Assembly (NCBI GenBank): GCA_013288325.1
Contig: JABDCB010000005.1
Location: 16,484 to 80,483 of the forward strand
Origin: Bacteroidota bacterium
Lineage (GTDB): Bacteria; Bacteroidota; Bacteroidia; Palsa-965
DNA length: 64,000 nt
Direction: 5' to 3'
In this document: one piece after another, positions 39,591 through 43,149 of the stretch
Position numbering within the stretch: position 1 is the stretch's first letter
Layout: each line of letters starts with the position of its first letter
Made by a program: the position numbers and the translations under genes
The notes under the pieces: generated by a model
What the model was told of the DNA's origin: nothing
The model's database searches: none
Seen by the model: only the letters and a program-made list of their open reading frames with translations

Positions 39591-39625
39591 CTTCTGACTT
39601 CTGACTTCTTGCTTCTTACTTCTTA
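39591..39625. repeat. five tandem 7-bp units (cttctga x2, cttcttg, cttctta x2)
   Basis: Read directly from the sequence. The last two units encode the C-terminal ...KK plus the stop of the minus-strand gene. Confidence 0.8.
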
Positions 39626-41664
39626 TGTTGTAATGCCCAGTTCAGGTTATTCTTAGCCAGTTCAAAATCGGGTCTGATACGCAGGGCTTCTTTACAAGCT
39701 TTTATTTCCTCCTCCCAGTTTTCCTGTTGGCCATAACAGGCTCCTATATTGTTCCAGGCTTCGGCAAAATCTTTTTTTAATTTCAATGCTTCCTGAGAAG
39801 CCGTAATACATAATGCATATTTGCCGGCATTGTAATAAGCAAGGCTCAGCTCCAGATAATTTTCGGGCGAAGGCTGGTTGCTTGCTTTTATGATCAGGGC
39901 ATCCAGGTAACTGGTGTTTCCGGCCGGGTGCAAAAGATAATTTTGAGCAATAGGATCGTTGGGCGACAGTTGAAGGGTTTGCTGTGCAGCAGCTTTTAGC
40001 TTATCGGATTGTCCTTGTTGCTGATAAATTTCCATCTGAAGATAACGCCCGTTCAGATGCCCCGGTGAAATGCGGAACAGCTGATCCAACAGATTAAGCG
40101 CTTCCGGAAAACGGTTTTGATTTTTCAAAAAGCGGGCATAATAAAAATAGCATTCCGGGTTCGCCGAGTTTTTTTCTTTAGCTAAAGCCTGGTCACAGGC
40201 CAGGGCTTTTTTAAAATAAGCTTCTGCTTCGGCCGGGTTGCCCTGAGCTTCTTTCAACACACCCATATTGATGTGGAGGTAAGAATAGTAGGGCCACAAT
40301 TCCAACCCCTTTTTAAAATAGATTTCAGCTCCGGCATAATCGCCTTTCTGCATCAGGTTGAGGCCATAATTCATTTGCCCTCTTCCATTCTCAGGGCTTT
40401 TAATGGTTACATCTTTCCACAAACGTTCCTCATCATGCCATACCACATTGCGTTCGTGGGTGCCAAATGCATAGGCGCCTAAAAAAAGAAAGCATACAAT
40501 GCCCAGTACATCTTTATGCATACGCAAAGGAGCCAGGAAAGGCAATTTGCGCAGCAGGATAAATGCCGTCCAGCTTACACTGATAACTAGCCCTACATAG
40601 GGAAAAAACATACGGTGATCGTTCATTACTTCAGCCAGGGGGGTAAGACTGGTTGGAAGCAGGGCCAGAAAAAACCAGCTGAGACCGAAGGCAACCGGTT
40701 TCCAAACTTTTTTCTGAGAAAGCAATAAGATGGAAACCAGCAGGAACAGAAGAAAGATAAAACCAATGATGCATTTGATATCCAGCAACGAAGTGAACGG
40801 TTTCCAGTCGGTATCGGCACTTAGATCAACAGGCAGGAAGAAGGTGTAGAAATACCGGAACAACACAAAGGGCTGTGTGATGAGGTAATTCAATTTGGAT
40901 GTTTCTCCGCCGGGCACCCAGGTTGCGGGTTCCATGATCCGGGTAAAGTAATAACAGCCTATACAGAAAAGGAGGGCAGGAGTTGTTTTAATAAGTATGT
41001 GGCGGATACGGGTAAACAATTTTTCATCGCCCGGTGATTCTTCAAAAAGAAAAACATAGACAGCCAGCATGGGGCCGAACATAACAGCGGTTGGTTTGGC
41101 CAGGGTGCCCAGCGCAACGGGAATGAGATACAGGAAATATCGCCGGCAGAAGGGAGAGCAGGCATAAAGCATAAAGGCTATTACGACAAACAAGGTGCTG
41201 AGGGTATCGGAGCGGGAAATGATATAATTGATAGTTTCCGCATTGGCCGGATGCAACAGATACCAGGCAGTGGCAAAAAGTGCCGTAACGGAAACAGAGG
41301 TTCCGGGTAGTGTTAAGGAGAAAACGGTACGGATCAAAAAGAACATACACACCCCTTGTAAAAGGAAGAGGAGAAAGGTGCTGAAATGAAACCAGAACAT
41401 ATTCTTATCGCCTCCCAGGGCATAATCAATAGCCAGGGTGGTACTTACCAGCGGACGATAGCTCTGATTGCTGGGCAGGGAACTGAAGGTGGTACCATCT
41501 TTAAAAAAGCGGGGAATATTGTGAATATCCCGGATATAAGCATTGTTGACAATAGTATGCGAATCGTCAAAATGAAAAGAATTATGAAAATGATTGGAAT
41601 AGGTAAGAAGCACCCCCAGAAAAAGGCCGACAAATAAGAATGGCAGCTTCCATTTTTGTTGCAT
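39616..41664 (-). CDS. GT-C-type polytopic membrane protein with C-terminal TPR repeats (TMTC/PMT-like putative protein mannosyltransferase)
   Basis: N-terminus 'FHFDDSHTIVNNAYI', about 10 TM helices, and about 250 aa of TPR-like C-terminus ('AEAWNNIGACY...'). Start set at M25; CAAATTTA at 41670-41677 is a minus-strand TAnnTTTG box. Confidence 0.7.
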   Translation of the reverse strand: MQQKWKLPFLFVGLFLGVLLTYSNHFHNSFHFDDSHTIVNNAYIRDIHNIPRFFKDGTTFSSLPSNQSYRPLVSTTLAIDYALGGDKNMFWFHFSTFLLFLLQGVCMFFLIRTVFSLTLPGTSVSVTALFATAWYLLHPANAETINYIISRSDTLSTLFVVIAFMLYACSPFCRRYFLYLIPVALGTLAKPTAVMFGPMLAVYVFLFEESPGDEKLFTRIRHILIKTTPALLFCIGCYYFTRIMEPATWVPGGETSKLNYLITQPFVLFRYFYTFFLPVDLSADTDWKPFTSLLDIKCIIGFIFLLFLLVSILLLSQKKVWKPVAFGLSWFFLALLPTSLTPLAEVMNDHRMFFPYVGLVISVSWTAFILLRKLPFLAPLRMHKDVLGIVCFLFLGAYAFGTHERNVVWHDEERLWKDVTIKSPENGRGQMNYGLNLMQKGDYAGAEIYFKKGLELWPYYSYLHINMGVLKEAQGNPAEAEAYFKKALACDQALAKEKNSANPECYFYYARFLKNQNRFPEALNLLDQLFRISPGHLNGRYLQMEIYQQQGQSDKLKAAAQQTLQLSPNDPIAQNYLLHPAGNTSYLDALIIKASNQPSPENYLELSLAYYNAGKYALCITASQEALKLKKDFAEAWNNIGACYGQQENWEEEIKACKEALRIRPDFELAKNNLNWALQHKK

Positions 41665-41828
41665 AATGGCAAATTTATGCAATTGGAGAGAATGGCTCTT
41701 TAAAAGATATGCGACAATTGCGTAGGCCAGGAACAAACCTGATCACGGTAATGATTGTTTGGATCAAAATATAAGATCAATTAGTGAGTAAATTAAACTT
41801 AGATACAAAAGTTGGGTTTACCAGTGAA

Positions 41829-42227
41829 AACATCCCGATTACTAAAGGAATTTCCTTGATTGCTAAAGGAACTTCCTTGATTGCTAAAGGAATCATCCCG
41901 ATTACTAAAGGAATTTCCTTGATTGCTAAAGGAATCATCCCGATTACTAAAGGAATTTCCTTGATTGCTAAAGGAATCATCCCGATTGCTAAAGGAATTT
42001 CCTTGATTGCTAAAGGAAACATCCTGATTGCTAAAGAAATTTCCTTGATTGCTAAAGGAAACATCCTGATTGCTAAAGAAATTTCCTTGATTGCTAAAGG
42101 AACTTCCTTGATTGCTAAAGGAAACATCCTGATTGCTAAAGAAATTTCCTTGATTGCTAAAGGAAACATCCCGATTGCTAAAGGAACTTCCTTGATTGCT
42201 AAAGGAAACATCCTGAATCAAGAGGTA
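41829..42227. repeat. tandem array of 21-bp units: 18 complete copies plus a partial 19th
   Basis: Units parsed by hand into two subtypes. Subtype A is a[at]catcc[ct]gatt[ag]ctaaag[ga]a (8 copies). Subtype B is a[tc]ttccttgattgctaaagga (10 copies). The subtypes mostly alternate. Confidence 0.97.
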
Positions 42228-42298
42228 GGGAAGTCGAGACCTAAAATTATCACTGGCCCGGAAACGGTTTCTTTTCATTCCGAAGTCCGATTTTCCCT

Positions 42299-42306
42299 TA
42301 TCTTTG
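42299..42306 (+). promoter_or_regulatory. -7 box (TAnnTTTG) for tatC
   Basis: TATCTTTG lies about 75 bp downstream of the repeat array and 49 nt upstream of the ATG at 42355. Confidence 0.45.
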
Positions 42307-42354
42307 CGCCCTTAAATGGCGCTATTCGGCAAATCTACTGGTAAAGACAACGAA

Positions 42355-43149
42355 ATGTCCTTCCTCGATCATATCGAGGTATTGCGCTGGCATTTAGTAC
42401 GTTCGGCTATTGTGGTGGTTATCATGGCCGTCGTTCTTTTCTGTTATAACAACATTGTTTTCGACGTTATCATATTCGGTCCCAAGCGCCCCGATTTTAT
42501 CACCTATCGTGTTTTATGTAAGCTGGGACATATGTTTCTTCACAACGATTCCATGTGTATCGGGGTGGCACATTATGAACTGGTAAATCTGGAATTGTCG
42601 GGTCAGTTTACCACGCATATCTGGATCTCCCTGGTAGGTGGATTGATCTTGTCCGTCCCCTATCTGGTATGGGAAGTATGGCGTTTTATTAAGCCGGCAC
42701 TTAAACTGAAAGAAAAAACGGCTGCAAGGGGTTTTGTATTGTATGCCTCCCTGTTGTTCGTAATAGGTATCCTTTTCAGCTATTTTGTCATTGTGCCCAT
42801 GACGGTCAGTTTTCTGGGATCGTATCAGATGAGTACGTTGGTGGAAAACCGGATTTCCATGGATTCCTATATATCGCTGGTTACCACCCTTACACTGGCC
42901 ATGGGATTGGTATTTGAATTGCCTATCCTGGTTTATTTCCTAACCAAGATCGGATTGCTGAGTCCTGCTTTTATGAGTCACTACCGCAAACATGCCATTG
43001 TGGTGATTCTTATTGTAGCGGCATTCATTACCCCGTCGCCCGATATTACCTCTCAATTATTGGTTGCATTCCCCTTATATTTGCTTTATGAAGTAAGTAT
43101 ACTTGTTGCAAAACGAGTGGATAAGAAAAAAGCTAAAACAGCTGCCTGA
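42355..43149 (+). CDS. tatC: twin-arginine translocase subunit TatC
   Basis: 'MSFLDHIEVLRWHL' and six TM helices. The ATG at 42355 is preferred over 42316. Confidence 0.92.
   Translation: MSFLDHIEVLRWHLVRSAIVVVIMAVVLFCYNNIVFDVIIFGPKRPDFITYRVLCKLGHMFLHNDSMCIGVAHYELVNLELSGQFTTHIWISLVGGLILSVPYLVWEVWRFIKPALKLKEKTAARGFVLYASLLFVIGILFSYFVIVPMTVSFLGSYQMSTLVENRISMDSYISLVTTLTLAMGLVFELPILVYFLTKIGLLSPAFMSHYRKHAIVVILIVAAFITPSPDITSQLLVAFPLYLLYEVSILVAKRVDKKKAKTAA

Follow-up and report, generated by a model that had tools for sequence, protein, structure and literature searches.

A 21-bp repeat array upstream of tatC in an uncultured soil Bacteroidia bacterium as a probable locus of an interspersed minisatellite family

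The window, as we call the whole 64-kb stretch of DNA analysed here, carries a tandem array of 21-bp units between tatC and a divergently transcribed gene for a membrane protein with TPR repeats (GT-C/TPR). More likely than not, this array belongs to an interspersed minisatellite family that is non-coding and specific to the lineage and that can be compared to MIRU or BrickBuilt, and it represents one of the family's loci. Arrays of the same units lie at several other intergenic loci, the corresponding locus of a sister species is free of them, strains differ in array length, and substitutions have run through the array as a whole.

In the mechanism that we favour, replication slippage or unequal recombination would add and remove whole A-B dimers and would also homogenise the units of each array, leading to concerted evolution. 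Turnover of the array sequence would be two to three times as fast as that of the unique flanks. The family would be seated at many unrelated intergenic sites of the chromosome, always as long arrays, and at the tatC locus it would act mainly as a spacer of variable length (~0.4 kb) that separates the GT-C/TPR promoter from the divergent promoter of tatC; steps of 42 bp (~four helical turns) in its length would keep the helical phase. Intrinsic curvature is predicted for the array, as for any 21/42-bp repeat. No sequence-specific cellular function is evident and we infer that the array lacks one, while any effect on the expression of tatC or the GT-C gene would presumably be incidental.

Anatomy and setting of the array

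We read positions 41500-42600 of the window and cut the sequence every 21 bp from 41829, which gave exactly the 18 complete units and partial nineteenth that had been parsed by hand in the first-pass annotation (Table 1). The two subtypes described there, eight A units and ten B units, agree exactly in number and consensus with our parse. Type A (units 1, 4, 6, 8, 10, 12, 15 and 17; n = 8) reads A[AT]CATCC[CT]GATT[AG]CTAAAG[GA]A, the remaining 10 units are of type B and read A[TC]TTCCTTGATTGCTAAAGGA, and the two types differ only at positions 3-8. Unit positions 9-19 form the conserved core GATT[AG]CTAAAG. At the right edge of the array the orthologs in relatives end with ACACAACCTGA, one base longer than the truncated unit of the window.

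Tandem Repeats Finder assigned the array a period of 42, with 8.8 copies, 91% matches, no usable indels and a score of 499, and this is the strongest tandem repeat of the 64-kb window, the runner-up scoring 59. The basic period is therefore the 42-bp A-B dimer of two 21-bp half-units, in line with the higher-order period noted at first pass and with the near-strict ABAB order of units across the family, which likewise makes the dimer the module. The 13-nt core reported as common to all units, GATTRCTAAAGRA, occurs 18 times in the window with up to one mismatch; all 18 copies fall within the array, only 0.55 were expected, and the count was reached in none of 100 shuffles of the window. A CRISPR array consists of repeats with unique spacers of similar length between them. 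Here every 21-bp slot is taken by an A or a B unit without unique spacer sequence, and the earlier conclusion that this is not a CRISPR array is upheld.

Table 1. Positions of the array and of neighbouring features in the window.
Feature	Position	Strand	Remarks
Repeat array	41829..42206	+	18 complete 21-bp units, order ABBABABABABABBABAB
Truncated 19th unit, AACATCCTGA	42207..42216	+	Right edge of the tatC-locus array; ~first 10 bases retained
Stretch without alignable counterpart in L001	41627..42290		664 bp in the window vs ~80 bp in L001
tatC	42355..43149	+	Pfam TatC, E 9e-65
Divergent multi-pass membrane protein with C-terminal TPR repeats (TPR/GT-C)	39616..41664	-	Likely ATG at 41664 (MQQKWK...)
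-7 promoter box of tatC, TATCTTTG	42299..42306	+	Fits TAnnTTTG; 93 bp past the last full unit

The location of the array in the divergent spacer between the GT-C/TPR gene and tatC was also checked and is as first described. TatC is on record in two forms, one of 264 aa from 42355 (MSFLDHIE...) and one of 277 aa from 42316. The open frame of the TPR/GT-C gene spans 39616-41736 on the minus strand; its real start is probably at 41664, and the product in relatives has 682 aa by the JGI gene call. The consensus of the Bacteroidetes -7 promoter element is TAnnTTTG, and the tatC box that fits it is kept in the sister species and in strain-level relatives. Its measured distance from the array confirms the earlier estimate of ~90 bp. 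Scans of the array and its surroundings for sigma-70-type and Bacteroidetes-type promoters returned nothing beyond this box, and in particular no TTTG-N17-23-TAnnTTTG promoter adjoining the array. Its position upstream of the tatC -7 box places the array outside the tatC leader.

Tandem repeats invite the suspicion of a collapsed, expanded or chimeric assembly, and some behaviour of these arrays would suit it. Many short contigs end inside the orthologous array (L093, L096, L097, L099 and L100), one contig (L105/L108) passes from the kinase locus to the tatC locus within an array of 8 units, and in another relative (L094) the run of identical units is as long as the assembler k of 141. Nonetheless, it is scarcely credible that the array of the window is an artefact of this kind. 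Its longest exact internal repeat is 73 nt, well under read length, and the contigs L093 (400 nt, window positions 42073-42472) and L106 (300 nt), which are independent assemblies from other samples and other assemblers, are identical to the window, array units included. The orthologous array was also assembled full length in three further samples. Given the short internal repeat and the two identical assemblies, the window array is not an artefact, and the objection anticipated at first pass, examined in short-read assemblies, leaves the array standing.

The locus in relatives and the dispersed family

The best TatC match among species representatives, 90% identical, belongs to the MAG 'Bacteroidia bacterium GcC11-26' (L001), and judging by the TatC relatives the host is an uncultured Bacteroidia bacterium. 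The gene order in L001 is the same divergent GT-C/TPR-tatC order as in the window. Homology between the two ends at 41626 and restarts at 42291, at the -7 box, and the stretch in between holds the array together with ~200 bp of unique spacer on its left and ~85 bp on its right. By eye, the left homology to L001 may reach ~41690. No tandem repeat was found upstream of tatC in L001, L002, L003 or L004; L002 and L004 also have no GT-C gene at all. As these four relatives have no such repeat, the array and a little unique spacer on each side are specific to the lineage of the window, and the -7 box of tatC is older than the array. A strict two-core DNA pattern matched none of 185,579 species-representative genomes of GTDB, which marks the family as rare; this count is to be read with the caveat that the same pattern misses true members such as L095, in which alternate units end in GAT.

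Strain-level relatives from several soil samples (TatC identity of at least 90%) do carry the orthologous array, with flanks that are 93-95% identical. These relatives are short-read metagenome assemblies whose unit counts are less certain and partly lower bounds: 20 units in L095 and in L098, at least 22 in L094, where the identical A-B dimer run equals the assembler k at 141 nt, and 18 on a 257-kb contig of sample 3300050821, the last deduced from an ORF call of 129 aa as against 143 aa in L095. The differences in copy number fall within a run of identical A-B dimers. Because this run is resolved in L095, where it measures 99 nt, and the 22 units of L094 are only a lower bound, copy number truly differs between populations by at least one 42-bp dimer. 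Of the three roles proposed at first pass, that of a copy-number-variable spacer therefore fits best, the orthologs having 18, 20 and at least 22 units in 42-bp steps.

The sequence of the units has changed along with their number. Between the window and L095 the units differ at 3.3 of 21 positions (~16%) array-wide, compared to 5-7% in the flanks. From window to L095 the array-wide changes are G13 to A, G20 to A and A21 to T, with A1 to G in B units, such that the window units use GATTGCTAAAGGA while those of L095 use GATTACTAAAGA[AT] and its B units begin with G. Counted per unit, the window array has fewer differences from its paralogs L082 (0.92) and L090 (1.34) than from the ortholog in L095, and a few variant units recur at different loci. 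This is concerted evolution with a pool of variant units common to loci; the sharing of variants could be caused by ectopic conversion or by independent homogenisation of shared ancestral variants.

Membership of a dispersed family is invisible from one window alone. A search for the core and unit in relatives, in which metagenome contigs were scanned for pairs of cores spaced at 21 bp, located the same A/B-unit arrays at no fewer than eight further intergenic sites, each with 16-24 units. Sample Ga0210396, which is also the source of L095, the close relative of the window genome at the tatC locus, has them on seven long contigs (36-161 kb), and Ga0210406 on one contig; L086 and L089 are one and the same locus. 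Across the family the arrays are ~340-500 bp long and the 21-bp register is exact, with zero indels over ~170 units. The array edges are degenerate, similarity of the contigs to the window is limited to the arrays, and no solo core or unit was found in ~160 kb of DNA of the lineage. Tetranucleotide correlations to the window are 0.90-0.97 for most loci and GC matches; the values are lower for L085 and L090, each of which is dominated by one large repetitive gene. The shared sample, the similar GC and tetranucleotide composition and the chimeric contig L105 suggest that all the arrays would belong to one genome.

The surroundings of the arrays are diverse. The flanking genes are divergent in the window and at L082, convergent at L081 and L090, and in tandem at L085, L086, L087 and L092, and they are unrelated to each other, including gyrB, hisG, a class-V aminotransferase, an HWE histidine kinase, PEBP, a T9SS cargo protein and TPR proteins. 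No conserved gene accompanies the arrays among the family loci examined, and the orientation of the arrays relative to adjacent genes is inconsistent among loci. As the arrays occupy all three intergenic settings beside unrelated neighbours, a role tied to tatC, or to promoters generally, is unlikely. The idea of a promoter function specific to tatC is weakened by the sister arrays between convergent genes and by L001, which has no array and keeps the -7 box.

We regard it as improbable that the arrays spread by a transposition-like process, either as a BrickBuilt-like MITE or as REP-like units mobilised by a RAYT. The presence of at least eight unrelated intergenic sites would suit such spread, as would a left flank of ~100 bp common to L081 and L087, a similar truncated unit, (C/T)TTATTACTAAAG or TCATTACTAAAG, with which three of the left edges open, and a RAYT gene (NF047646, 106 bits, cutoff 80) 2 kb from the array at the kinase locus. 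Against this, no shared leader, tail or terminal inverted repeats were found at the nine loci, neither in flanks of 200-500 bp compared by blastn-short and local alignment nor anywhere within 500 bp on either side. Left flanks scored no higher than 23 against reverse-complemented right flanks, with a shuffle-null maximum of 24, and the lone exception to the overall dissimilarity is the L081/L087 pair of left flanks, with a local score of 49 vs a null maximum of 24. The units are direct and do not alternate in orientation. The inverted repeat that flanks the RAYT itself, CCCTGCCTATTTTT/AAAAATAGGCACGG with its GTAG motif, is unrelated to the array units, and the RAYT was for this reason rejected as a mobiliser of the arrays. 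A transposition-like origin, in which the minisatellite is the cargo of a non-autonomous element, would concern dispersal only and is compatible with the minisatellite explanation. At the loci examined no mechanism that seeds new arrays was found, and no plasmid or phage sequence resembling the array was matched.

Coding, RNA and protein-binding readings

The first-pass annotation had offered a repetitive coding sequence as one option for the array, and three of the six frames are indeed open across it, one on the plus strand and two on the minus strand. The product would be a heptad-repeat protein, of xSLIAKG/xIPITKG on the plus strand or of PLAIKE... or SFSNQG... on the minus strand. Two of the frames are open in all arrays examined, JGI calls plus-strand ORFs of 129, 143 and 157 aa in relatives, and the plus-strand ORF matches Pfam DUF7470 at 34 bits, a match that we rejected, as it covers 32 residues of low-complexity repeat. 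The existence of such a protein is nevertheless highly improbable. By our own estimate ~3 open frames are expected by chance for an AT-rich unit of 21 bp. Across eight arrays the open frames stop 6-131 nt past the repeats, in unrelated tails, and share no consistent start, the JGI ORFs begin at a TTG within the second unit, and the SFSNQG frame is broken by stops in two of eight arrays (L087 and L090). The frame that enters the right flank differs between window and ortholog, the last partial unit of the ortholog being longer by one base; another 1-nt indel follows in the tail, at GACCTAAA(A)TT, and the tail reads NQEVGKSRPK... in the window and TQPESRGREVET* in the ortholog. All of the array-wide differences between the orthologs are non-synonymous in both of the always-open frames (for example G to or from E/D, A to or from T and P to or from L).

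Protein searches agree. None of the three window ORFs is present in a collection of 15 billion proteins, and they are thus called by neither NCBI nor JGI. When 5.8 billion protein clusters were searched with the plus-strand ORF, the only match was P0006, an unrelated repeat; its contig, L104, holds a different 21-bp repeat, GTCTTATAGTAGAGGGAATAA, in eukaryote-like DNA, and the protein resemblance is spurious. With an unconserved frame into the flank, no consistent start and one frame broken, the coding option falls, and the array is non-coding and not a gene.

The internal symmetry of the units had also been emphasised. The perfect dyad TTCCTT-N8-AAGGAA is indeed present in all ten B units of the window, and the junction palindrome AAGGAA-T-TTCCTT is found at seven of the ten, so the description itself stands. 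The weight placed on it is weakened, since the dyad is perfect in none of ten B units of the ortholog, in only 30 of 93 across the family and never in A units, and the junction palindrome follows a parallel pattern. The dyad is accordingly a property of the current unit variant of the window and not of the family. At L086, T6 together with A20 gives a perfect stem in a shifted register, which is suggestive, while the stem of most units is imperfect.

Folding of the first 252 nt gave z = -3.0 on the plus strand and -2.6 on the minus strand, owing only to the hairpins of the B units. These values, and the transcription of BrickBuilt repeats from both strands (PMC4596501), are what would speak for an array that is transcribed into an active repeat RNA, which might offer an RNA-binding protein a multi-site sponge or give tatC or the GT-C gene a structured 5' leader. 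We consider an RNA of this sort very unlikely from the predictions at hand. The only predicted structure is the short B-unit hairpin, whose dyad is missing from the ortholog and from two thirds of the B units of the family. Rfam 15 gave no match at the gathering score (the best was PyrR, with 28.8 bits vs 54). Further, no Bacteroidetes-type promoter adjoins the array, the position upstream of the -7 box excludes it from the tatC leader, and its orientation with regard to neighbouring genes is inconsistent. Predicted curvature, computed from wedge parameters, is above that of 99% of genomic windows, yet 48% of shuffled 42-mers repeated nine times are more curved still. As shuffled 42-mers in tandem match it, curvature would be a by-product of the period, and we rejected it as a selected property.

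Three features sit less easily with a purely neutral minisatellite. Array length is narrow, with 16-24 units at nine loci and no short arrays or solo units, whereas MIRU and BrickBuilt loci may have as little as one unit; variation in the core is a third of that elsewhere in the unit, and the same variant units recur across loci. Deviations from the local majority inside arrays amount to 3.5% at positions 9-19 vs 10.4% elsewhere (Fisher p 6e-17, calculated over events that are not independent), and half of the deviations in the core fall at position 13. Together the narrow length, the low variation of the core and the recurring variants could reflect a trans-acting constraint.

One form of such a constraint, in line with the iteron-like platform suggested at first pass, would be a lineage-specific DNA-binding protein that reads GATT[AG]CTAAAG every two helical turns, with the arrays as its multi-site platforms. 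At many sites of the chromosome it would cover one face of ~400 bp of DNA, and the arrays might be nucleoid-organising, silencing or centromere-like elements, akin to iteron or sopC arrays though dispersed over the chromosome. We think this unlikely, though less so than the other alternatives. The conserved 11-nt core beside the variable 5' part of the units, the exact 21-bp register without an indel in ~170 units, the strict alternation of A and B, the narrow array length without solo units and the variant units common to different loci are all features that such a protein would explain. On the other side, no conserved gene accompanies the arrays, and they are absent from the locus of the sister species and, by the strict pattern, from all GTDB representatives. 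The array-wide substitutions between close strains strike core position 13 and the flanking positions 20-21, the dyad expected of a dimeric binder is lost in the ortholog, and no match to partition or replication regions of plasmids or phages was obtained. In addition, the conservation of the core is partly a by-product of A and B units differing only at positions 3-8.

A more specific proposal, which we hold to be quite a long shot, is that the arrays are genome-wide, length-controlled (~20 sites, ~420 bp) and helically phased binding arrays, a predicted 'functional satellite'. If true, it would organise or insulate chromosomal domains, and units and protein would co-evolve; the protected core, the A/B alternation, the shared variants and the want of short arrays and solo units would be explained at once. 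The narrow length, the protected core and the seeding of loci keep a protein-binding role alive as a small but real chance. Protein binding, if it were to be found, would make the arrays a chromosomal element of a new kind, but the present evidence does not require binding.

Comparison with known repeat systems

As expected of a minisatellite or VNTR family, the units fall within the 10-100 bp range, run head-to-tail without spacers at several loci, differ in copy number between strains and are non-coding. The closest described case is BrickBuilt of Porphyromonas gingivalis, a set of 23-nt spacer-less direct repeats at 19 intergenic loci in ATCC 33277, in arrays of 1 to 22.8 units with a conserved leader and tail that carry IS-related terminal inverted repeats (Klein et al. 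2015, PMC4596501). The likeness is considerable: both are found in Bacteroidota as short direct repeats without spacers (23 vs 21 nt) at many intergenic sites with unrelated neighbours, and in both the units are imperfect and differ between loci, reach up to ~23 per array and have been miscalled as hypothetical ORFs. The present family differs in having no common leader, tail or terminal inverted repeat, always 16-24 units and a 42-bp A-B module, the units of the two systems being compared by length only. Thus neither a leader and tail of the BrickBuilt type nor its IS-related terminal inverted repeats were found in the tatC-array family.

MIRU have units of 46-101 bp and occupy 41 loci in M. 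tuberculosis H37Rv (summarised in PMC3914561). They resemble the present arrays as tandem repeats over many intergenic loci, with copy number that varies between strains and neither transposase nor inverted ends. In contrast, MIRU are usually present in a few copies and lie within operons, while here ~20 units of the 2 x 21 bp design occur in any intergenic context. MIRU often carry small ORFs coupled to flanking genes, and the tatC-array family is without such ORF coupling.

REP units are palindromic, alternate in orientation in BIMEs, and have a cognate RAYT that is flanked by REP units. The present units share with them a short, partly palindromic, extragenic, dispersed and sometimes clustered nature and a RAYT gene in the lineage; unlike REP units they are all direct, their palindrome is unconserved, and the RAYT flanks carry an unrelated repeat. 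The sopC site of the F plasmid consists of twelve 43-bp direct repeats, and iteron and centromere arrays of plasmids are in general single-copy, conserved and located beside rep or par genes. What sopC and the tatC array have in common is a row of direct repeats, about ten to twelve in number and ~42-43 bp in length, which carry a short dyad each and lie on one face of the helix. However, the latter lies on the chromosome, belongs to a multi-copy family, has no partner genes, is missing from the sister species and matches no plasmid; no rep or par gene is adjacent, the neighbours being tatC, the TPR membrane protein, gyrB, hisG and others. We therefore class the array with the interspersed minisatellites of bacteria, as a sequence family that is new and unusual in its architecture: the module is dimeric, only long arrays occur and mobile-element ends are missing.

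Few bacteria, all of them cultured, have well-characterised interspersed minisatellites, while this family comes from uncultured soil Bacteroidia, where it would offer a clean case for the study of array seeding and of homogenisation across loci in bacteria. It also has consequences for annotation: the arrays break and mis-join short-read metagenome contigs, and in public catalogues they give rise to spurious 'hypothetical proteins' 60-160 aa long. The arrays could also serve as a marker for strain typing in soil metagenomes.

The contig scans returned a few further candidates. Three two-unit matches on viral contigs all fell in sequence that is coding or unrelated. The pair L083/L088 has a 21-bp array of 6-7 copies with the same 13-nt core and another 8-mer, and L091 is a coding duplication; neither was counted as a relative, since their number is about that expected by chance among 21-bp tandem duplications, by a rough estimate. 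L084, maybe a distant relative though an uninformative one, has 2-3 units, an A-like plus B-like pair in non-coding DNA of 32% GC.

The junction of two array loci on one contig

One 52-kb metagenome contig (ENA ERZ27253726 k141_4208123; L105 and L108 are extracts of it) joins two loci that carry arrays of the 21-bp family. Its left part matches the kinase locus, L087, at 99.95% identity, and its right part matches the tatC locus of the strain-level relative L095 at 99.4%. The two parts meet within an array, which has just 8 units there, and the exact stretch common to both arrays at the junction is 42 nt only. The join is either the product of ectopic recombination between two dispersed arrays, leading to a chromosomal rearrangement, or a jump by the assembler from one array to the other.

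When the paralogous arrays were compared, no flank similarity was found beyond one stretch of approximately 100 bp that the left flanks of the L081 and L087 arrays have in common (L087 1650-1745). A second 42-bp repeat, differing from the repeat of the adjoining array, lies immediately left of the L081 array.

Features at the array loci and in the loci compared
Feature	Location	Strand	Remarks
8-unit array, kinase/tatC junction	L105 2603-3000 = L108 9603-10000		ENA contig
Second 42-bp repeat (ATCTACATTCATACAC...)	L081 12667-12754		2.1 copies
Heptanucleotide repeat CTTCTTA x5	window 39591-39625
TPR membrane protein gene	window 39616-41736
Public gene calls wholly on arrays	L094 621-1094; L095 and L098 2499-2930; L105 2669-2854
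Tandem arrays, unrelated unit sequences	L003 139-414; L049 8188-8461; L014 4967-5174; L047 6733-6847
21-bp array, 6-7 copies	L083 1232-1380; L088 89-216		organism with 30% GC
REP-associated tyrosine transposase gene	L108 7017-7586	(-)	NCBIfam NF047646, 106 bits
Inverted repeat CCCTGCCTATTTTT/AAAAATAGGCACGG	L108 6964-6996 and 7656-7687		either side of transposase gene

Genes and gene calls around the tatC array

The TPR membrane protein gene beside the array is present in L001, the nearest species-level relative, and missing in L002 and L004, where a kpsF-like SIS/CBS gene immediately adjoins the tatC upstream region; this is a gene-level indel adjoining the array site. The heptanucleotide repeat lies in the small space that separates the SIS/CBS gene from the TPR membrane protein gene, whose 3' ends converge.

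The public gene calls on the arrays, of 61-157 amino acids with a TTG start within a unit, are very likely spurious "hypothetical proteins". For tatC itself there are two candidate starts, 42355 and 42316, and public annotation has both the corresponding 264- and 277-residue forms of TatC. The 264-residue form opens with MSFLDHIEVLRWHL, a typical TatC N-terminus, and with the -7 box at 42299-42306 a start at 42316 allows nearly no leader.

Arrays of similar period and a REP/RAYT system

Among other Bacteroidota loci retrieved for the tatC comparison, four carry arrays of 5-7 copies with the 42-bp or 21-bp period of the window family, and the L003 unit contains a palindrome with a 9-bp stem (CACAATCTCAATTGAGACTGTG). 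For intergenic minisatellites of Bacteroidota, a repeat length equal to two or four turns of the helix may be favoured. In the metagenome matches L083 and L088 the unit has a 13-nt core, GATTACTAAAGGA, identical to that of the window family and a different 8-mer (TCGCTTGG), and a GC-rich hairpin, CCGATCCCCCTGGATCGGGGG, precedes the array. Given the search design this likeness is compatible with chance, although the array could instead be a distant relative.

The transposase gene of L108 and its flanking inverted repeat, which contains a GTAG motif, indicate that the array-bearing lineage also has a REP/RAYT system; the repeats flanking this gene are unrelated to the 21-bp array units.
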